A DNA stretch of 35,002 nucleotides from a virus (Duplodnaviria; Heunggongvirae; Uroviricota; Caudoviricetes): positions 1 through 35,002 of the IMG/VR virus record IMGVR_UViG_2534681936_000014. One strand, given 5' to 3'. How positions within the stretch are numbered: position 1 is the first letter of the stretch; each line of letters opens with the position of its first letter. Under the pieces are notes generated by a model that had not been told where the DNA came from, searched no databases, and saw only the letters and a list, made by a program, of their open reading frames with translations. Of the stretch, positions 12,005 to 33,526 are shown one piece after another. A program made the translations under genes and the position numbers.

Positions 12005-14011
12005 ATGCTTAAATTTCGCCGCGATCTTAACGGTTACGGTGGGGTTATTAACGAAGGGCAGAATGATCAATACGAATTTGAAATTGCTTTCTCCAGTGAA
12101 CAGCCTTATCAGCGCCGATTCTGGGATGAGCAAAATCAAGAAATGGTGGTATTAGATGAAATTCTGGTACATACACCGGAAGCGGTTGATCTGTCTCGTC
12201 TGAATAATAACGCTCCGTTGCTGTTCAATCATATTTTCGATAATCACATTGGTGTCGTTTGTAACGCTCGAATCGATGCGGATAAAGTAGGCCGTGCGAC
12301 CGTTAGATTCTCTAAGCATGGCACTTTGGCTAATGATATTCGTAATAAAGTCATTGAAGGTACGATGGAAAAAATATCGGTCGGCTATGACATTAAAGAG
12401 TATCACATCGACTACGCTAAATCGCAACTCATTGTTTCTAAATGGATTCCTCACGAGGTTTCATGGGTGTCTGTTCCCGCAGACGACACCGTGGGTCTGA
12501 ATCGCTCTCTAAATACTATCACAGTTAATTTGGAGGCTAAACGCGATATGACTAAAGAACAAATCGAAGAAATCAAAGAAGAACAAGAAGCCGCTCAGGT
12601 TGAAGAAACTCCGGTAGAAGAAATTAAAGAACCGGAAGTAGAAGAAACTCAAGAGCGCCAAGTTGAAGAGAATAAAGAAGATGAAAATCTCGAAGACGGA
12701 AAAGACGCTGAACATCCTGAAAGTGTTGATGATGATAGTTCAACTGTTCGGGAAACAGAAGAAGTAAAAGAAGAACGTGAAGCCGCTCCGGTTGAAGAAG
12801 AAAAAATCGAAGAAGTGGCTGAACGTTCCGAAGAAGACGAAGAAGAAATCCGAGCAATCGCTCGTGAGTTAAATATTAACGACGAAGAATTAGAACGCGC
12901 ATTGGCAGTTAAAGATATGACGCCGGAAGCATTCCGCACTAAGGCACTAAATAACATTACCAATGCTCAACGTAATAACGAACAAATTAATAAGGAACAA
13001 ATCATGGAAAAAACTTTCGATCTTAATAACGTAATCCGCTCCCTGGTAGATGGCGACGTGCTCGGCGCTAACGAAGCTGAATATTCCGCTATGGCTGCTA
13101 CTGCAACTATGCAGCGTGGTCGTGCTGCTCGTGGTGGCTCTGTATTCGTTCCGGCTGCTGCTATGCGTGCTGCTGCTGCTGGTAACACCAAAGCTACTCT
13201 GGAAGCTATCACTGACGAAAAACTGATGACTGAATCCTACATCGAAATGCTGATGCCGGAATCTGTTCTGGGTCGTCTGGGTGTGACTGTTTACAGTGGC
13301 TTGAACTCCCCGACCGCTATTCCAAAAATGACTAAATCCAGCGTTGACGCTTTCGGCTTCGTTGATGAAAACGGCGCTGCACCGGAAAGCAAAGCTGAAT
13401 TTGCGAACGTGAAACTGTCTCCGAAAACTTTTGCTGGTGGCAACCCGATCAGCCGTCAGTCGCTGAAAACCGTTCCGGGTATCGCTTCCCTGATCACTGA
13501 TCACATTAACAAAGCTGTTCGTATCAAACTGGAACAACTGATTCTGTCTGACAAAGACAACGAGCGCGGTCCGGCTGGTCTGGTTAAGCAACTGGTTGAT
13601 GCAAGCCGTGTTACTAAGAAAGCCGCTTTCTCTTATAAAGACTTCCTGAAAGAAATTGCAGCACTGACCGACGCTGGCGTTCCTGCTCAGGCGATCAAGT
13701 TTGCAATGAGCGGTGCAACTGCTGCTGAACTGGAATCTACCCTGAAAGATAACGGCGTTTCCGGTTATATCATCGAAAACGGCAAACTGGCTGGTTACGA
13801 AGTAATTACTTCTGGCGTTATTCCGGCAGACCACATCGTTCTGGGTGACTTCTCCGGTATTACTATCGGTGAGTGGGGCGGTCTGGAACTGGATATGGAT
13901 CTAACTACATACCGTGACCGTGGTGCGGTAGTGCCTCGTATCTTTGTAGATTTGGACTACGTTGTAGCACAGCCGGAAGCTCTGAAAGTTCTTCACATCT
14001 CCGCTGAATGA
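12005..14011 (+). CDS. Prohead protease fused to major capsid protein (protease - acidic linker - capsid) in one ORF
   Basis: 668-aa uninterrupted frame; N-terminal about 170 aa with HK97-type prohead protease features (ISVGY...EVSWVSVPADDTVG); E-rich linker 12540-12900; C-terminal about 300 aa with strongly biased highly-expressed codon usage and capsid-like sequence; strong terminator downstream. Confidence 0.75.
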   Translation: MLKFRRDLNGYGGVINEGQNDQYEFEIAFSSEQPYQRRFWDEQNQEMVVLDEILVHTPEAVDLSRLNNNAPLLFNHIFDNHIGVVCNARIDADKVGRATVRFSKHGTLANDIRNKVIEGTMEKISVGYDIKEYHIDYAKSQLIVSKWIPHEVSWVSVPADDTVGLNRSLNTITVNLEAKRDMTKEQIEEIKEEQEAAQVEETPVEEIKEPEVEETQERQVEENKEDENLEDGKDAEHPESVDDDSSTVRETEEVKEEREAAPVEEEKIEEVAERSEEDEEEIRAIARELNINDEELERALAVKDMTPEAFRTKALNNITNAQRNNEQINKEQIMEKTFDLNNVIRSLVDGDVLGANEAEYSAMAATATMQRGRAARGGSVFVPAAAMRAAAAGNTKATLEAITDEKLMTESYIEMLMPESVLGRLGVTVYSGLNSPTAIPKMTKSSVDAFGFVDENGAAPESKAEFANVKLSPKTFAGGNPISRQSLKTVPGIASLITDHINKAVRIKLEQLILSDKDNERGPAGLVKQLVDASRVTKKAAFSYKDFLKEIAALTDAGVPAQAIKFAMSGATAAELESTLKDNGVSGYIIENGKLAGYEVITSGVIPADHIVLGDFSGITIGEWGGLELDMDLTTYRDRGAVVPRIFVDLDYVVAQPEALKVLHISAE

Positions 14012-14103
14012 AATAACGAAGAATTGCCGGAAGAAATTCCGGTAGTTACGGCGAAAGCCACAGCTAAAAAGGTGGGACGTCCACCGAAAGCAAAATAATA
14101 ATT

Positions 14104-14131
14104 AGCCCTGCCTAACGGTGGGGCTTTTTTG
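14104..14131 (+). terminator. Rho-independent terminator downstream of the capsid gene
   Basis: Hairpin AGCCC...GGGCT followed by TTTTTTG. Confidence 0.65.
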
Positions 14132-14160
14132 TATGTAAATACTCCATAAAGGGGGTAACT

Positions 14161-14451
14161 ATGTTCAAATTATCAGAATCACAATTAAATCGAATGTTTA
14201 AAAGTGCTCCTGTATTTTCGGTGGAAGGTGGTAAATCAATTCGTGCTTACCATGAAATTACTACTACCGACGAACAAGGGGTAATTACAGAATCAGAATT
14301 TCTATTTTGTCGTGAGGGAGACTTAAATCAGGGTGATGTTGTCATTGTAGACGGTGAACGCTTCAAAGTTCAATACGTTAAGCGCAATGGTGATAATACT
14401 TCTGATTGCTTTATTGCTCGTGCAGGGGGTACACATGCTCGCTACCGTTAA
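14161..14451 (+). CDS. Putative head completion / head-tail connector protein (96 aa)
   Basis: AAAGGGGGTAA RBS; position immediately after the capsid gene; assignment positional only. Confidence 0.5.
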   Translation: MFKLSESQLNRMFKSAPVFSVEGGKSIRAYHEITTTDEQGVITESEFLFCREGDLNQGDVVIVDGERFKVQYVKRNGDNTSDCFIARAGGTHARYR

Positions 14452-14857
14452 TAATATGCCTAGACTGAAAATCAAACGCGCCTTGCAGGATATTATCGAA
14501 CAAGATTTAGGTCTGGCTTTAAACGTAGAACAAACTCAGCAAGGCTTTAGTGATGACGTGGTTTGTTGGATTACCGGAATGAATGAGACTTATACGCGTG
14601 TTCGTGGTGGTAATGCAATGCAAGCTGAATGCGTTATCGAAATGCAGTTATATTCTCAGATTCATGAAACGAAAATTCATGAGGGTATTTGCCAGATAAT
14701 CCAGATTCAGCCGGATAACCCACGTTTTAAAGATTTGGGCTTCGCTATTTCAGATATCACTCCAGTAGCTTCTAATACCGATTATGACGATGATTCTAGT
14801 GATGGGGGTATCGTTGGGACACTTAGCCTTAAATTTTCTTATGTAGCGCGTTTTTAA
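14435..14857 (+). CDS. Putative head-tail joining / tail completion protein (140 aa)
   Basis: ATG at 14435 with AGGGGG RBS, overlapping the upstream gene by 17 nt (the ORF-track start at 14354 lacks an RBS); positional assignment. Confidence 0.5.
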   Translation: MLATVNNMPRLKIKRALQDIIEQDLGLALNVEQTQQGFSDDVVCWITGMNETYTRVRGGNAMQAECVIEMQLYSQIHETKIHEGICQIIQIQPDNPRFKDLGFAISDITPVASNTDYDDDSSDGGIVGTLSLKFSYVARF

Positions 14858-15773: not shown

Positions 15774-18700
15774 ATGCAATCAATCCAATTTAAACGAACT
15801 AATGTTTCTGGCAAAAAACCAACGCCGGAACAATTACAGGTCGGTGAGGTAGCAATCAACCTTAAAGACCATGTTATTTTTACCAAAGACCGAGATCATG
15901 AAGTAGTTCAAATCTCTGTTTCTCCTGAAACTCACGCGGCACTAGAATCTAAAGTTGATGCTAACAAACAAGAATTGGATAGCACAATTGCAGTAAATGA
16001 CCGCAATATTCACGCTAAAGTAGATGAAATTAAACAAACTACTGATTCTACTATCGCAGCAAATCATGCAGAAATTAACAATAAAGTTGATGTAATTAAA
16101 CGCGAAACCGACGCGACAATCGAAGCTAATAAAAATAAAGCTGCTTCCGATCTTGCTGGTGTTAAAGCTGAATTGTCGGATACCATCAACGCTAATAAAA
16201 ATGCGGCTGCTGTAGCAACTCAGGAACTGGACACCCGCATCAATAAAAAAGTTGATGATATTAAATCCCGTACTGATGCAACCATCGCAAGCAATCACAA
16301 AGCAATCAATGACAAAGTTGATTTGATTAAGGCAGAAACTGACCGCACTATCGCAGCAAATCAAGCCTATGCGGAAAATCAGTTAACTGACACCTACAAT
16401 AACCTTACTGGTGTGATTGCAGCTAATAAGCAAGAGGCAGCGGATAGCGTCGCAGCATTAACCCGTGATGTTGAAGCCAAAAATACAGCAATTCATAGCA
16501 AAATTGACAACAACAAGGTTTACACTGATTCTGAATTGGCACGCTTAGAAAGCCGTATTGATGCAGCCGATGGATCTGCTGATGGCAAGTACATCAAAAA
16601 ACACGTAAACACTTATACTGATGGTTATTTGCTGTCTAAGACCGCAAACTATTTTGATGATCCAAATGCGCGTAATCTTGATTACTTTGGTGCATTCCGC
16701 ATGAATGACCTGGCGGGTCATATTGCAATGATCTTGCATGTTCCGCATCCATCTGGTGTTAATCATGCTCGTGGCTTTGAGTTCACTTATGGGTCTAATC
16801 CACATGCTACTGTAAGAACATACGGCTATGATGAATTAGGTAATTTGTCATATTCTCACCGCATGTATCATGAAGGCGATAAACCTACTCCGGCTGAAAT
16901 TGGCGCATATTCGAAAGCAGAAATTGACCGACTGTTCCAGAAGACGCTTAATTTTGGGATCGAGGGTGGTTGGTTTAAACTCGGTAGTTTAACACTGCCA
17001 CAGCAACACGGTCGTAGTGCTAAGATCCGCTTAGTTGGTGGTAACGGTTATAACGTCGGGATGAATGGACAAGCCAATATTATCGAATTGGTGATTCGAT
17101 GCGGCAACAATAGCCCGAAAGGTGTTGTATTCAATGCTTATTATAGCATCTGGTATCACGAACAACATTTTTGTGCAATTCCTACCGATGGTGATAATTA
17201 CGATCTTTACGCTTACTACGGTGCACATACAGGATTTGTTTTAGCAGAATATCAAGTTTCTTCCGGTGGTGTTTCTTTAAACCTGTTGGATACTCCTGAA
17301 TATCTGGGTGGTGAAAAACCTGTTGCAGATGAAATTTTTGATGCTCTTAACATTTCATCGTTCAATAACTTTAGCAACCGTGGGACGTTAAATTTTGCTG
17401 GAAACCATCAAGGCCAATATGACATTGAGCATATGAACGAACAACAAACTAACAGCAAAAAGATGTTGCGTCGCTTCCGTAGTTCTGCTCCTGCCACTAT
17501 CTGGCACGAAAGTGTTGATGACCAAAATTATCGTCTTGCTACTGGTTATGACGATGTAAACCAACAATTATTGCTTTCGGCTGCAACCGGGTTACATGTC
17601 AAGAGATTAACATTGGATGGCGGTGTTGGTAATGCCGGTATTGACATTCGTCGAGGACCAAACGAATCAAGCCATTTTAATTTTATGGATTATCGCACTG
17701 GTCAAGATGTTCGTAATGGCTGGTTTGGTTTTGGTGATTTGACGACCAAAGATTTTATTTGGTGGAACGATAACGGCCAAAACTCGATAAACCTGATTGA
17801 AGATGGCGAGTTGCATATTACTGGTGGTAAAGGCCAGAAAATTGTAATGAATAGCGAAGTTGCATTATCCGAAAATGCTCGTTTGGCTGTCAAAGGCGGT
17901 AACTATGGTTTGATATTACGCAATGATGGTTCTAGCTTCCATATTCTTACTACCGATTTAAAAGATTCTTTTGGTAATTGGAATAATCGCAGACCATTCA
18001 GTTATGATTTTGCGGACGGTGGATTATATTTAGGTGGTACTGAAACTGCTCGTTGTTTGCATCTTGGAATTGATGGTAGCACTCGTCTCGAAGACAACCT
18101 GTTCTTTAAAGCTGGTTCTCGTCAATCTATGGACTATATGGAACTCGTCCATTGGGGTGCAAGCAATACAGGTCGAAATAACGTTTTAAGTCTTCGTGAC
18201 TCAAAAGGATTTTTAGCCGAATTTGAACGTCTATGGGATAATACTACCAAAAACACCTTCTTCGGGAAAATGAAAATTAATCGTGGATCTGATGCAATTA
18301 TCATGAATGCCGAAAGTGGTGATTCGTCTGTATATTTGTTGGGTACGTGTGCTGACAACAACAACTGGTATATTGGTAAAGGCGGTGGTGATAATGGATT
18401 AGCGTTCTATAGCTATGCTACTAATGCCGCGATAAATCTTACGAACGCTGGGGATATTGCATTAAGTCCAAAAGGCGTCGAAATGGTTCATGTTAATAAC
18501 GCTCGATTATATGTTCATGGTGAACGTTGGACCGCTAGTCAACCAGGTGATTGGGGTAATCAGTGGCGAGTGGAAGCGCCAATATTCGTCGATCATGGCT
18601 ATGTTGGACAAGACTGTTATTATCCGATTGTTAAAGCAAGAAGTTTAATCACCAATCAAGGGTATACAACTGCCGTCGATTTTGGTATGCGTCGTATCCC

Positions 18701-19199
18701 TAACAATTGGGGACAAGCAATTATTCGTGTTGGATCTGCGGAAAACTCACCTGATAACGGACACCCTCAAGCTGTATTTGAGTTCCATCACGATGGGTTC
18801 TTTTACACGCCGGGTAACGGTAGCTTTAACGATGTGCATATTCGATCTGATGAACGTCTTAAGATCAACAAGGAAGAATTGGAAGAAGGTGCGCTGGATA
18901 AATTAAACAGCTTAACCGTATATTCCTACGATAAAGTTAAATCACTTTCTGATGATACAGTGGTTGGACGCGAATTAGGTGTCATTGCTCAAGATGTGGA
19001 AAAAGTTATGCCGGAAGCTGTGCACGTTTGCAGCGATGGAGATACCGAAAATCCAGGAGAAATTAAAACTATTTCTGTTTCTAGTATCAATGCTCTTTTC
19101 GTGAAAGCCTTTCAGGAATTAACGACTAAGTATGATGCGATGAACGAAGAGTTGAAAGCTGTTAAAGCTGAACTTGCGGCTATTAAATCCTGTAAATGA
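15774..19199 (+). CDS. Tail fiber protein with C-terminal S74-type intramolecular chaperone (self-cleaving) domain
   Basis: 1141 aa; N-terminal shaft built from about 22-aa repeats (KVDxIKxxTDxTIAAN); C-terminal region ...SDERLKINKEELEEGALDKLNSLTVYSYDKV...GVIAQDVEKVMPEAVH... matches the signature of endosialidase / T5 L-shaped-fiber chaperone domains from memory. Confidence 0.85.
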   Translation: MQSIQFKRTNVSGKKPTPEQLQVGEVAINLKDHVIFTKDRDHEVVQISVSPETHAALESKVDANKQELDSTIAVNDRNIHAKVDEIKQTTDSTIAANHAEINNKVDVIKRETDATIEANKNKAASDLAGVKAELSDTINANKNAAAVATQELDTRINKKVDDIKSRTDATIASNHKAINDKVDLIKAETDRTIAANQAYAENQLTDTYNNLTGVIAANKQEAADSVAALTRDVEAKNTAIHSKIDNNKVYTDSELARLESRIDAADGSADGKYIKKHVNTYTDGYLLSKTANYFDDPNARNLDYFGAFRMNDLAGHIAMILHVPHPSGVNHARGFEFTYGSNPHATVRTYGYDELGNLSYSHRMYHEGDKPTPAEIGAYSKAEIDRLFQKTLNFGIEGGWFKLGSLTLPQQHGRSAKIRLVGGNGYNVGMNGQANIIELVIRCGNNSPKGVVFNAYYSIWYHEQHFCAIPTDGDNYDLYAYYGAHTGFVLAEYQVSSGGVSLNLLDTPEYLGGEKPVADEIFDALNISSFNNFSNRGTLNFAGNHQGQYDIEHMNEQQTNSKKMLRRFRSSAPATIWHESVDDQNYRLATGYDDVNQQLLLSAATGLHVKRLTLDGGVGNAGIDIRRGPNESSHFNFMDYRTGQDVRNGWFGFGDLTTKDFIWWNDNGQNSINLIEDGELHITGGKGQKIVMNSEVALSENARLAVKGGNYGLILRNDGSSFHILTTDLKDSFGNWNNRRPFSYDFADGGLYLGGTETARCLHLGIDGSTRLEDNLFFKAGSRQSMDYMELVHWGASNTGRNNVLSLRDSKGFLAEFERLWDNTTKNTFFGKMKINRGSDAIIMNAESGDSSVYLLGTCADNNNWYIGKGGGDNGLAFYSYATNAAINLTNAGDIALSPKGVEMVHVNNARLYVHGERWTASQPGDWGNQWRVEAPIFVDHGYVGQDCYYPIVKARSLITNQGYTTAVDFGMRRIPNNWGQAIIRVGSAENSPDNGHPQAVFEFHHDGFFYTPGNGSFNDVHIRSDERLKINKEELEEGALDKLNSLTVYSYDKVKSLSDDTVVGRELGVIAQDVEKVMPEAVHVCSDGDTENPGEIKTISVSSINALFVKAFQELTTKYDAMNEELKAVKAELAAIKSCK
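15952..16380 (+). repeat. Intragenic tandem repeats, about 66-bp period, encoding the fiber shaft
   Basis: Successive units starting near 15952, 16018, 16084, 16249 and 16315 all begin AAAGTxGATG...ATTAAA...ACxGA. Confidence 0.6.
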
Positions 19200-24299: not shown

Positions 24300-25073
24300 A
24301 TGCGAAAATTCCATTACGTTTATCACACCACTATTAAATCTAATCGCTCTGGTAAAATCTATCATTACGTCGGAAAAAGAACAACTACAAATCTAGACGA
24401 TGGATATGTGGGGTCGGGTAAAGTTATTAAAATGATGAAGCGTAAAAATAAAGAATCAGAAACCCCGATATATGAATTTGAAGTTGTTCGCTCAAAATTG
24501 TTTGATACTGCCGAGGAAGCGTTTGAATGTGAAATTCTGTTAGTGGAGGCAGCACGCGAAAAATGGGGGCGTGGTGTATGTCTTAATATTGCTCCTGGTG
24601 GTGTCGGTGGTTTTGATGGTGGTGAACATCACCCACTGTACGGAAAGAAACATAAGCCAGAAACAATCGAGAAATTTAGAAAGAACAACGCAGGTGAAGG
24701 AAACCCGATGTTTGGACGGGTAAGCCCAAAACGAGGAAGGAAGATAACTAATCCAGAAACGTTAGCTAAAATGTCCGCTGCAATGAAAGGCGCTAATAAT
24801 CCTCGATACGGCGCAATAGTCACCGAAGAAACACGCGCAAGAATTAGTAAGGCTTTATCTGGTCGAAAGATTACCGATCCTGTAGAAAAGGCTAACAGAA
24901 CTAAAGCAATTAGGGAATCGAAAGGTCAAGCATGTTGGCAACATTACGATGAAATTCGTCGTGTGTGGATCGAAAACGGTAAGCCCGGCGCGGCAAGATT
25001 ACGAACAATCATGATTGGCTTAGGCCATCCAAAATATGATCTTCGTAGAATGTGCGAAGACTTCAAGAAATAA
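24300..25073 (+). CDS. GIY-YIG homing endonuclease with NUMOD3-like repeats
   Basis: 257 aa; N-terminal HYVYHT...GKIYHYVGKRTT...GYVGSGK and FECEIL align with the I-TevI catalytic-domain pattern (GIYQIKN...VYVGSA...FECSIL) from memory; three G-x-x-H/NP-x-[YF]G-x-x-x-x-x-E-T-x-x-K-[IM]S repeats (HPLYGKKHKPETIEKF, NPMFGRVSPKRG...PETLAKMSAAM, NPRYGAIVTEETRARISKAL). Confidence 0.8.
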   Translation: MRKFHYVYHTTIKSNRSGKIYHYVGKRTTTNLDDGYVGSGKVIKMMKRKNKESETPIYEFEVVRSKLFDTAEEAFECEILLVEAAREKWGRGVCLNIAPGGVGGFDGGEHHPLYGKKHKPETIEKFRKNNAGEGNPMFGRVSPKRGRKITNPETLAKMSAAMKGANNPRYGAIVTEETRARISKALSGRKITDPVEKANRTKAIRESKGQACWQHYDEIRRVWIENGKPGAARLRTIMIGLGHPKYDLRRMCEDFKK

Positions 25074-31827: not shown

Positions 31828-33507
31828 TTAAATTCCAAATTCCTGTAATGGACCTGGTATTTCTTCTTCTGGTTTCCAGTTCTTATCTGTCAGCATGTCT
31901 AAACATGGATGCAGAACAAGCCCGTTACTCTCCAGAATCTGCCTATCATTGATAGTCTTCAAATCAACGAAGATCCGGCCTTTCCTCGGTCCTCTTGAAT
32001 TTTCTATTACAACTCTCTGGGTCTTGCCATCGATGTATTCCAGTACAAACAAGTTTTTGTACTTGTCAATCCTGCTACACCCGATCCGTTTTAGAGCTTG
32101 CTTAATCTTAAACCGGACCTTAATGCGATCCTCGTTGTAAACATCTTCTAAATCAAATTCTGCGAGCTTCTCCCAGCCTTGAGAGTCAACAGAATACATT
32201 TCCTCTTCTGCCATCTTAATTTGATTGTAGAGTGTTTCACGCTCGCTATTGAGGGTAGTAATCTGATCGGCTAGCTCCTTCGTTGCTCCTGTCATAGCAG
32301 AAAGGGTAATCAGGTTATCAATCTTGCGTGATATTTCATCAATCTGTACTTTCAAAGCCGGAACCGGATTAGCCTTATCTTCAGCAATCCAGATTTTATC
32401 AGCCAGCAATTGCAATACAGCTTTCTCTAATTGGTCGCCGCGAAAACTCCAGTTTGTATGCACACATTCAATACGACTAGAGCGCATTGCATCGCATGAA
32501 TAACGATATTGGTTAGGCCGTCTGTTTGTTCCTTTCACCTTAACCATAGCGGAACCGCAATGTTCACATTTCAATAGACCAACACCACTAAGCAAGGGAA
32601 TAGGTTTAACTTCTTCTTTGTCTCCAAAGTTACATGCTCTAACACCAATGCTTTTCTTAAGGTGATAAAACTCAGCGTCATCTAGCACACGAGGATAATA
32701 ATCCTTTAACTCATACTTAACGCCATCTACAGAGATTTCCTTGATACCAATCAAAGCGCGGGTATGGAACAACCTTTCAATCATTGCCCGTGACCAGTTT
32801 GAATGCCTCTTGTGACTTGCGGCTGGTGGTGGTGTGTATGTCGCGTTAAGGTGATCCAGTATCTCGGCGGTTGACCGTCCATTCCTGCGTAATTCCACAA
32901 CTTCCTGAACAATAGGGAAGAAGACCGGATGAGGAAGCACATAACCAGATGTGGTATCAGTCCACCACATATTCTTTCCAATTTCCTCGATTGCAACAGC
33001 CGGATTTTGTGGATTTTCTTGATGAGCTTTAATCTTAATCAGTGCGCTTGAGTTAGTACGATTGCGCTTAGTCTGGCTTTCCTCATTACCACGGATGAAT
33101 AAAAGGATGGAGAACATCAGGTCCATCGGGTTAGCGGTAACAGTATCCAGCGAGTAGATCTTGTTATCCATGCCAGTAACAATGGTTATCCCCCTACGGA
33201 TGATTGAAAGGAATAACTCCTGCGCACTGACAATATCGGCACGGGATAAACGGTCCAAGTTTTCGATGAATAGCCAGCTACCAACAGGAACGGATCTACC
33301 TATTGCATCAAGGAAACGAGATAGCGCCCCTGTTTTGGAGTTAGCACCCTTAAACGCAGATACACCCAGATCCTGATAATCATTTACCAGTTCAAGGTCA
33401 TACTTTACCGCAATCTCTCTAGCCATCCTGATTTGTCGTTCATAACTCGAACCATCATTCTGACGCATAGACGAGAAACGAATATACGAATACAGTTTAG
33501 TTTTCAT
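31828..33507 (-). CDS. Large serine recombinase (resolvase-type catalytic domain, recombinase domain, zinc ribbon and coiled-coil C-terminal region)
   Basis: About 559 aa from ATG 33507; N-terminal YSYIRFSSMRQNDGSSYERQ with the catalytic Ser in the position typical of serine recombinases; Cys pairs (CEHCGS...CDAMRSSRIEC) and coiled-coil region downstream. Confidence 0.85.
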   Translation of the reverse strand: MKTKLYSYIRFSSMRQNDGSSYERQIRMAREIAVKYDLELVNDYQDLGVSAFKGANSKTGALSRFLDAIGRSVPVGSWLFIENLDRLSRADIVSAQELFLSIIRRGITIVTGMDNKIYSLDTVTANPMDLMFSILLFIRGNEESQTKRNRTNSSALIKIKAHQENPQNPAVAIEEIGKNMWWTDTTSGYVLPHPVFFPIVQEVVELRRNGRSTAEILDHLNATYTPPPAASHKRHSNWSRAMIERLFHTRALIGIKEISVDGVKYELKDYYPRVLDDAEFYHLKKSIGVRACNFGDKEEVKPIPLLSGVGLLKCEHCGSAMVKVKGTNRRPNQYRYSCDAMRSSRIECVHTNWSFRGDQLEKAVLQLLADKIWIAEDKANPVPALKVQIDEISRKIDNLITLSAMTGATKELADQITTLNSERETLYNQIKMAEEEMYSVDSQGWEKLAEFDLEDVYNEDRIKVRFKIKQALKRIGCSRIDKYKNLFVLEYIDGKTQRVVIENSRGPRKGRIFVDLKTINDRQILESNGLVLHPCLDMLTDKNWKPEEEIPGPLQEFGI

Positions 33508-33526
33508 ACCATTTCCAAACAAAAAC

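Follow-up and report, generated by a model that had tools for sequence, protein, structure and literature searches.

An open frame behind the UGA-A stop of an Escherichia coli prophage capsid gene: probable programmed readthrough to a minor tailed capsid subunit

What is the meaning of a reading frame that stays open behind the stop codon of a major capsid gene? The question is raised by IMGVR_UViG_2534681936_000014, an Escherichia coli prophage recorded in IMG/VR (Duplodnaviria; Heunggongvirae; Uroviricota; Caudoviricetes), of which positions 1 to 35,002 were analyzed (35,002 nucleotides (nt), in the following called the window). Its capsid gene ends with TGA, and the same frame continues for 28 codons up to a tandem stop next to a transcription terminator. 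Comparison with related loci makes programmed UGA readthrough to a minor extended capsid subunit, similar to Qbeta A1 and T7 10B, the probable explanation; a small share of the capsid subunits would probably carry an additional tail, acidic first and then basic. The support for this reading is comparative and consists of the anatomy of the locus, the conservation of stop and frame, the covariation of an RNA structure and the homology to tails that are fused in frame in relatives. The elements of the locus are the following.

12005–14011, plus strand: fusion gene of S78 prohead protease, acidic scaffold-like linker and HK97-fold major capsid protein, 668 codons, ending with TGA
14009–14012, plus strand: candidate leaky stop signal UGA-A, GAA UGA AAU in the window and GAA UGA ACU in most relatives
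14012–14095, plus strand: in-frame extension NNEELPEEIPVVTAKATAKKVGRPPKAK, 28 codons, open in frame 0 after the capsid TGA
14012–14047, plus strand: acidic, proline-containing linker of the extension, NNEELPEEIPVV, net charge −4
14048–14095, plus strand: basic tip of the extension, TAKATAKKVGRPPKAK, net charge +6, holding a sub-threshold AT-hook-like GRP
14096–14101, plus strand: tandem in-frame stops TAA TAA closing the extension
14104–14131, plus strand: intrinsic terminator with a stem of 9 base pairs (bp), loop TAAC and T-run, starting 2 nt past the second TAA
14161–14451, plus strand: next gene downstream, 96 amino acids (aa), with its own GGGGG Shine-Dalgarno sequence, weakly matching a head-tail attachment family

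The region 13600–14200 is 100% identical to FDAARGOS_946 and O55:H7 DEC5A, and the gene content of the prophage includes a large serine recombinase as well as lambda-type terminase and portal genes. DNA searches revealed no close relative of the window among GenBank phages, and a scan of genome contigs with capsid peptides gave no match. Protease and capsid are both recognized by Pfam within one open reading frame (ORF; Peptidase_S78, 1.9e-9; Phage_capsid, 1.6e-26), which also matches PHROG families 617 (major head protein, 7e-92) and 4523. RefSeq annotates the gene product as WP_000911566.1, and the nearest solved structure is the major capsid protein 8gta (E = 2e-24). RefSeq leaves the stretch from the capsid gene to the gene after it unannotated.

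A previous sequence-only reading of this DNA had placed the capsid TGA at 14009–14011, followed by 28 codons devoid of ATG and a TAA at 14096–14098. Positions, peptide and the lack of an ATG all proved correct. The terminator that it had described as following directly on this TAA could be confirmed, while a second in-frame TAA (14099–14101) had gone unmentioned. With six G–C pairs in 9 bp followed by TTTTT, the hairpin at 14104–14125 qualifies as an intrinsic terminator, and it is kept in all relatives.

In the window alone, a 28-codon open extension is within chance expectation, as about one third of the ORFs of at least 90 aa have at least 28 open codons past their stop. This frequency speaks for pure chance, that is, for an ordinary stop in front of an accidentally open, A/G-rich 3′ untranslated region (UTR). 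The comparative results described below argue against such an explanation, and we regard it as very improbable. The stop itself stands out from its surroundings. The G+C content is 0.495 in the mature capsid domain (13001–14000) compared to about 0.41 in the remaining prophage, consistent with codon optimisation for E. coli; strong optimisation of this domain makes the weak TGA-A stop more conspicuous. Among the structural genes of the window, only the capsid gene ends with TGA-A, the others mostly with TAA-T, often in tandem.

Relatives were gathered by capsid-based retrieval from IMG/VR, by scans of IMG/VR and metagenomes for the exact 26-mer of the terminator, from RefSeq E. coli genomes and by look-ups of individual homologues. 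The comparison set comprises 88 locus records, which represent about 55 different E. coli prophage contigs or genomes and 30 unique alleles of stop plus extension; in RefSeq, the module of TGA and extension is present in 54 of 5426 E. coli genomes. TGA followed by A is invariant (30/30 unique alleles). Frame 0 is open in all 30 alleles over 28, 33 or 42–45 codons and contains no internal stop in any of them, whereas frames +1 and +2 carry 1–7 stops per allele and have 4 and 8 alignment columns that are polymorphic for stops. Every extension closes with a tandem stop at the same place ahead of the terminator; of 36 alleles counted, 33 have TAATAA and the others TGATAA or TAATAATAA. The approximately five indel events (48 nt, 27 nt, a net replacement of 6 nt, 3 nt and 3 nt) are all multiples of 3, for which a chance of about 0.4% is calculated. 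A search of 5.8 billion proteins with a query fused by tryptophan (Trp) found none that runs through the stop, and 0 of 94 clusters extend past it, so that the TGA can be considered as fixed. The same TGA-A-plus-extension module also occurs in a second E. coli capsid lineage, which ends with ...VVQKKVD and whose capsid domain shares only about 39% identity. As a check, the sequence-only reading had named conservation of the open frame in related phages; with 30 alleles and two capsid lineages the outcome is positive and favours readthrough to a minor extended capsid species.

As an alternative to readthrough, the sequence-only reading had offered a tiny gene with a non-ATG start. In-frame candidates are present in the window extension: an independent gene of about 24 aa could start at TTG 14024, a shorter one at GTG 14072. 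No Shine-Dalgarno sequence lies upstream of either codon. The starts are not conserved, since TTG is changed to TCG in locus L030 and both the long and the 33-codon variants differ at these sites; across the 28-, 33- and 42–45-codon variants neither a start codon nor a Shine-Dalgarno sequence is maintained. Conservation of the frame, moreover, starts with the first codon past the TGA. On these grounds an independent small gene is extremely improbable.

Across loci L001–L096, the extension alleles (14009–14160) are shuffled relative to the alleles of the capsid C-terminus (HISAE, KIGEE, KMGEE, QIGAE, KKVD and others). The junction of stop and extension therefore seems to be a recombination hot spot. 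The terminator and the ribosome-binding site of the next gene are nearly invariant across the same loci. One record, L030/L081 (IMGVR_UViG_2877285697_000006), is interrupted by a frame-0 stop near the beginning of the capsid domain, for which either a frameshift or an error of assembly is responsible. Although its capsid frame is broken, this record retains TGA-A and a 28-codon extension intact, and its hairpin shows a compensatory change from U-A to C-G.

A conserved RNA structure following the UGA, absent from the sequence-only reading, adds a second layer of constraint. In the window it comprises three hairpins.

14022–14047, plus strand: 11-bp RNA hairpin AAUUGCCGGAA-GAAA-UUCCGGUAGUU, the base of which is helix H1, 10 nt past the UGA
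14050–14059, plus strand: small hairpin GGC-GAAA-GCC, found in every allele, with one C-G to U-G change
14071–14085, plus strand: hairpin GGUGG-GACGU-CCACC within the V-G-R-P-P codons, found in the GRPPK tail type only, with TTTTT behind it on the minus strand, where it has a terminator-like score

From the UGA up to the tandem stop, the RNA folds much better than shuffled controls (z = −4.1 for the window, further values −4.8 and −3.5). According to RNAfold, H1, the closing helix of the main domain, starts exactly 10 nt past the UGA in all alleles. It is formed by AACC/GGTT in 26 alleles, AATT/AGTT in three and AATC/GATT in one, and is thereby paired in 30/30. The long variants have an invariant 8-bp hairpin, CUUCCCCC/GGGGGAAG, and a side branch inside H1, and it is exactly this side branch that is lost in the 27-nt deletion variant. 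Within the 26 long alleles, RNAalifold and pair counting yielded no two-sided covariation; the support for RNA structure is derived from the distribution of variable sites and from the comparison between architectures. In the long alleles 4 of 52 paired columns are variable compared to 21 of 44 unpaired ones (p = 1.3e-5), and for third codon positions the corresponding values are 1/18 and 8/14 (p = 0.004). None of 95 circular shifts of the pairing mask did as well as the real mask. In the helices of the short variants, all four changes keep the pairing, including an exchange of U-A for C-G; at the hairpin 14071–14085, loci L008 and L010 have GGCGG...CCGCC, in which the change from U-A to C-G also converts Val into Ala. 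As variable sites avoid paired columns and H1 covaries between architectures, the RNA structure is, judged by these alleles, under selection in its own right.

No Rfam family matched in 13800–14300 at E ≤ 1 (eight unrelated families appeared at E = 1.9–9.4), and none was found in the region of the RNA domain or anywhere in the window, so that the domain is not a known small RNA, leader or selenocysteine insertion sequence (SECIS). The last of these deserves attention, because an in-frame UGA with a hairpin about 10–11 nt downstream resembles the layout of fdhF, and E. coli possesses the selenocysteine machinery. Selenocysteine could then be inserted at the UGA under the direction of this hairpin, which would serve as a bacterial SECIS 10 nt past the codon. 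SelB needs loop G-U and bulged-U determinants. The apical loops observed here, GAAA in the window and GAUUU in the long variants, are without a bulged U and hence lack these determinants. The apical parts differ completely between variants, and SECIS families were included in the Rfam search of 13800–14300 that remained without match at E ≤ 1. Insertion of selenocysteine is scarcely credible in view of these differences.

The origin of the extension becomes apparent from distant relatives with 40–54% identity (Salmonella, Enterobacter kobei and other contigs), in which a short tail is fused in frame past the conserved core, as seen at the capsid 3′ ends of L035, L037, L039, L040, L098, L099, L101, L106 and L107. 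The fused tails (GTPAEAKAAKQ, GTPAEAPAEAKAGK, GEAEAGETRKAK, VEASKAK, APAGRSK, GTVTAK and GAVAK) are 5–14 aa long, rich in Ala/Glu/Pro and Lys and mostly end with K, and all these genes close with TAA directly ahead of the terminator. Alignment of L035/L037 (GAA AAA GGT ACT CCG GCT GAA) with the E. coli type-2 sequence of L043 (GTT GAC TGA ACT CCT GTA GAA) sets the TGA opposite a glycine codon, where core and tail meet. Between TVTAK of E. kobei (ACT GTA ACC GCT AAA) and the E. coli extension (ACG GTT ACG GCG AAA) there are four differences, all of them synonymous. The TVTAK core is that of the long-variant tails, the window reading VVTAK; for both TVTAK and the G-R-x-P-K motif, the differences between lineages are synonymous only. 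By this homology the extension is to be regarded as ancestral coding sequence that corresponds to the tails fused in frame in relatives.

At the level of the peptide, composition is better kept than sequence. The linker is proline-rich, 12 to 28 residues long and has a charge of −4 to −9 in all alleles. The tip carries +5 to +7 in every allele, even though it exists in three forms that are distinct in their DNA (KKVGRPPKAK; KKQRKTKE/KKERKTKAK; KRGRKPKE). The proposed conservation of the extension in relatives was thus borne out in that the frame stays open and the charge pattern is retained together with the basic tip; it was not borne out for the amino-acid sequence, which is without clear purifying selection. 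The tip of the window had also been described as an AT-hook-like GRPPK motif. KKVGRPPKAK does share the G-R-P core and the basic flanks with the AT-hook (PF02178); it lacks, however, the R ahead of G, and the ERKTKAK tails lack the G-R-P core. Pfam AT_hook scores of the GRPPK tails are 14.2 and 14.7 bits compared to a gathering cut-off of 17.4 bits (E = 0.039 for the window), and the QRKTKE and RGRKPKE tails gave no match to this family. Since the scores stay below the cut-off and neither of the two further tail types scanned gave a match, we rejected the assignment to the AT-hook family; the idea could apply at most to one subtype of tails.

The constant place of the tandem stop allows for a further explanation, in which the act of translation matters and not the peptide. 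Readthrough ribosomes at TAA TAA, which lies 2–5 nt from the stem, would occlude the 5′ arm of the terminator, and by this translation-coupled antitermination a set fraction of the transcripts would continue into the head-tail genes. In accordance with this, the tandem stop abuts the terminator (14096–14101 vs 14104) in every allele and for any tail length, and frame and stop position are fixed at weakly constrained amino-acid identity. The stops of the fused-tail relatives, however, are also found 12–16 nt from their terminators, which makes such proximity the ordinary layout of the capsid gene. The charge pattern and the synonymous-only differences in TVTAK and GR-P-K point towards some selection on the peptide, and among the ribosomes only the leading one could have such an effect. 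We therefore consider antitermination distinctly unlikely.

Further support for a dosed tail comes from a sister group of E. coli prophages (6 of 5426 genomes), in which the stop of the capsid ORF is TAA. A conserved lysine-rich tail is encoded there in the −1 frame, a few codons past a slippery motif in the right register.

L109:1570–1660: −1 frame tail DGSLTDTGAQAAPVRKPRALKVTK, slippery motif A_AAA_AAG (heptamer of dnaX type)
L102 (=L034):1570–1660: −1 frame tail NGSLINTGEQASPAKVKKPRALKVK, slippery motif A_AAA_A
L112:860–945: −1 frame tail DGSLIDTGVQKTPIKKARAQKSVK, slippery motif A_AAG
L105/L108 (=L033/L036):1565–1640: −1 frame tail ...KAKAKAKAKAETAE, slippery motif A_AAA_AAA (L108)

Slippery motifs of the A_AAA_AAG type have been described (PMC4066793). 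Past the slippery sites a hairpin with a compensatory change is found (CAGGAGAA/UUCUCCUG vs CAGGAGCA/UGCUCCUG). The tail of the sister lineage looks like the product of a programmed −1 frameshift in the style of T7 10B and suggests repeated selection for a sub-stoichiometric tail. For the window itself −1 frameshifting was considered and rejected, as the extension continues in frame 0 and CAC ATC TCC GCT GAA, the codons ahead of it, are not slippery. With fused, −1 frame and post-UGA tails in relatives, one capsid family seems to have three ways of expressing a tail at the C-terminus: as a constitutive fusion, through a −1 frameshift, or downstream of a leaky UGA. A dosed minor isoform is, with these three ways in one family, the most economical reading of the window.

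Under programmed readthrough, most ribosomes would terminate at UGA 14009 and release the normal precursor of protease, scaffold and capsid. In a small fraction, the near-cognate tRNA-Trp would decode UGA-A; these ribosomes would add 28 codons (42–45 in most relatives) and halt at TAA TAA by the terminator, resulting in a minor form of the capsid subunit whose C-terminus is prolonged by a flexible acidic linker and a tip rich in lysine and arginine. The junction peptide expected from such an event, e.g. VLHISAEWNNEELPEEIPVVTAK, would contain W (or C) at the position of the stop. According to Engelberg-Kulka 1981 as cited in PMC5289835, tRNA-Trp of E. coli misreads UGA with particular ease when the next base is A, and TGA is the leakiest E. 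coli stop, read mostly as Trp (PMC11126739). In most alleles UGA ACU corresponds to the context of the leaky stop of the Qbeta coat gene (UAC UGA ACU), whereas TAA, mostly as TAA-T or in tandem, ends the other structural genes, the capsid genes of the fused-tail relatives and the extension itself. Readthrough itself and its rate, the insertion of Trp, the exterior location of the tail and any function of it are inferred.

With the UGA in the A site, the helix 10 nt downstream would be located at the entrance of the mRNA channel. The RNA domain may modulate termination and readthrough, or it may stabilise and protect a 3′ region that is mostly left untranslated. That UGA-A and the covarying RNA domain jointly set the dose of tailed subunits, as one of three dosing solutions in the family, is put forward tentatively, and we would rather doubt it than rely on it. 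Assuming a T=7 shell (about 415 subunits) and 0.5–5% readthrough, about 2–20 tails per capsid would be obtained. T7 10B display and phi29 gp8 offer analogies for an exterior C-terminus. In HK97-fold encapsulins the C-terminus points outward (PMC8229669). By analogy, the capsid C-terminus is expected on the outside of HK97-fold shells, with few tail copies per virion, in which case the tail would form a flexible and zwitterionic appendage on the exterior, its tip being polycationic. Adhesion, polyanion binding and inter-capsomer contacts are candidate roles.

Several points weigh against programmed readthrough. Minimal substitutions at codon positions 1/2/3 amount to 18/23/21 and show no third-position bias, and 17 synonymous compared to 46 non-synonymous changes in the extension are near neutral; by this count the amino-acid identity of the extension is weakly constrained. 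A test restricted to substitutions and conditioned on variable sites gave a weak result, with 2.3 stop-creating changes expected in frame 0 and 0 real ones (P ~0.06). The constraint that the RNA structure imposes at the nucleotide level could explain part of the conservation without translation. Further, the alleles are mosaic recombinants, so that indel and substitution events are not fully independent, and part of the variation could predate the TGA. We also know of no RNA structure that stimulates near-cognate readthrough in bacteria, and literature searches for a bacterial structure of this kind found none.

Some of these observations could be expected from a relic tail combined with a structured 3′ UTR. 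A TGA nonsense mutation would have cut off the ancestral fused tail and spread, the open frame being a leftover, and the RNA domain would have persisted because it protects or processes the 3′ end of a very abundant capsid mRNA. The near-neutral amino-acid substitutions are in accordance with a relic, as is the fact that the strongest measurable constraint is RNA pairing, synonymous sites included; relatives show the tail formerly within the ORF, and in mosaic alleles indels and substitutions may be older than the TGA. On the other hand, all five indels have lengths divisible by 3 and frame 0 is free of stops while the other frames gain and lose stops, and three different tip sequences all reach +5 to +7 and are all closed by the in-frame tandem stop. 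A selected truncation would be expected to use or evolve TAA and not an invariant, Qbeta-like UGA-A, and the sister lineage obtains its tail through −1 frameshift sites. A relic is in our view unlikely, and programmed readthrough to a minor tailed subunit is the reading that we favour.

Several other features of the prophage were noted. The gene of the large serine recombinase is located at 31828–33522 (minus strand). In FDAARGOS_946 the prophage adjoins a C-terminally truncated hicB (host flank L042:2840–3148), an arrangement that points to the hicAB antitoxin gene as the site of integration. A tail-fibre gene (15774–19199, 1141 aa) with Gp34_trimer and S74 chaperone domains is situated between head genes and tail-tube gene. 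About 2.3 kilobases of it are 82–86% identical in DNA to the genes for the distal subunit of the long tail fibre of T4-like coliphages, suggesting mosaic exchange. A gene at 24300–25073, located in the tail module between the DUF2163 and gpJ-like tip genes, encodes a DNA-binding protein with a NUMOD3 domain and resembles a homing-endonuclease remnant. ARAGORN proposed a 91-nt tRNA-Glu at 14622–14712 (minus strand) inside the plus-strand ORF 14435–14857; as no Rfam tRNA reaches the gathering score anywhere in the window, it is probably a false positive.

Among known systems, the closest analogue in outcome is given by T7/T3 10B and the frameshift products of Listeria and Lactobacillus phages, in mechanism by Qbeta A1. 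Recoded minor extended forms of HK97-fold capsid proteins are described for T7/T3 (10A/10B), Listeria phages PSA, A118 and A500 and Lactobacillus phage A2 (PMC5009743). They have in common with the proposed product a major form and a minor C-terminally extended one, and the sister lineage (L109, L102, L112) appears to be of the same kind. They differ in using −1 or +1 frameshifting, whereas the extension of the window is in frame 0 behind a stop and without a slippery site. In Qbeta (Qubevirus), readthrough by tRNA-Trp at about 5% leads to the C-terminally extended minor coat protein A1, present in few copies per virion (PMC7026636). Both are capsid genes with UGA followed by A in an E. coli host, with an identical UGA ACU hexamer in most alleles of the present set. 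Qbeta is, however, a single-stranded RNA levivirus with another coat fold, compared to a tailed double-stranded DNA prophage with an HK97-fold capsid, and its extension of about 196 aa is folded and needed for infectivity, compared to 28–45 aa of low complexity. The conserved RNA domain past the stop is a feature of the present locus, recognized here from sequence alone. Eukaryotic viral readthrough, as in the gag-pol pseudoknot of murine leukaemia virus (MuLV) or with stem-loops about 8 nt past the stop, also combines a leaky stop with a stable, conserved RNA structure at a fixed short distance (PMC7026636). In our case this distance is 10 nt. The eukaryotic elements act on eukaryotic ribosomes and eRF1. 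A bacterial counterpart of them is not known to us.

To our knowledge, the only bacteriophages in which readthrough has been described are the RNA phage Qbeta and its relatives, and in tailed phages recoded minor capsid isoforms are known only through frameshifting; our literature searches found no report of stop-codon readthrough in the capsid gene of a tailed double-stranded DNA phage. With the capsid tail described here, such a case would be proposed for the first time in a tailed DNA phage. The predicted product of the extension escapes annotation pipelines, as illustrated by the unannotated region in RefSeq. A C-terminal tail of low copy number, probably exposed on the surface by analogy with other HK97-fold shells, would provide a ready-made display site. 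Should the RNA domain prove to enhance near-cognate readthrough by bacterial ribosomes, no element of this type would have been described from bacteria before. If the proposed readthrough is true, a tractable bacterial system would become available for the modulation of RF2 termination by a downstream RNA structure, programmed readthrough would be extended to double-stranded DNA phages, and modes of recoding would have been interchanged within one protein family.

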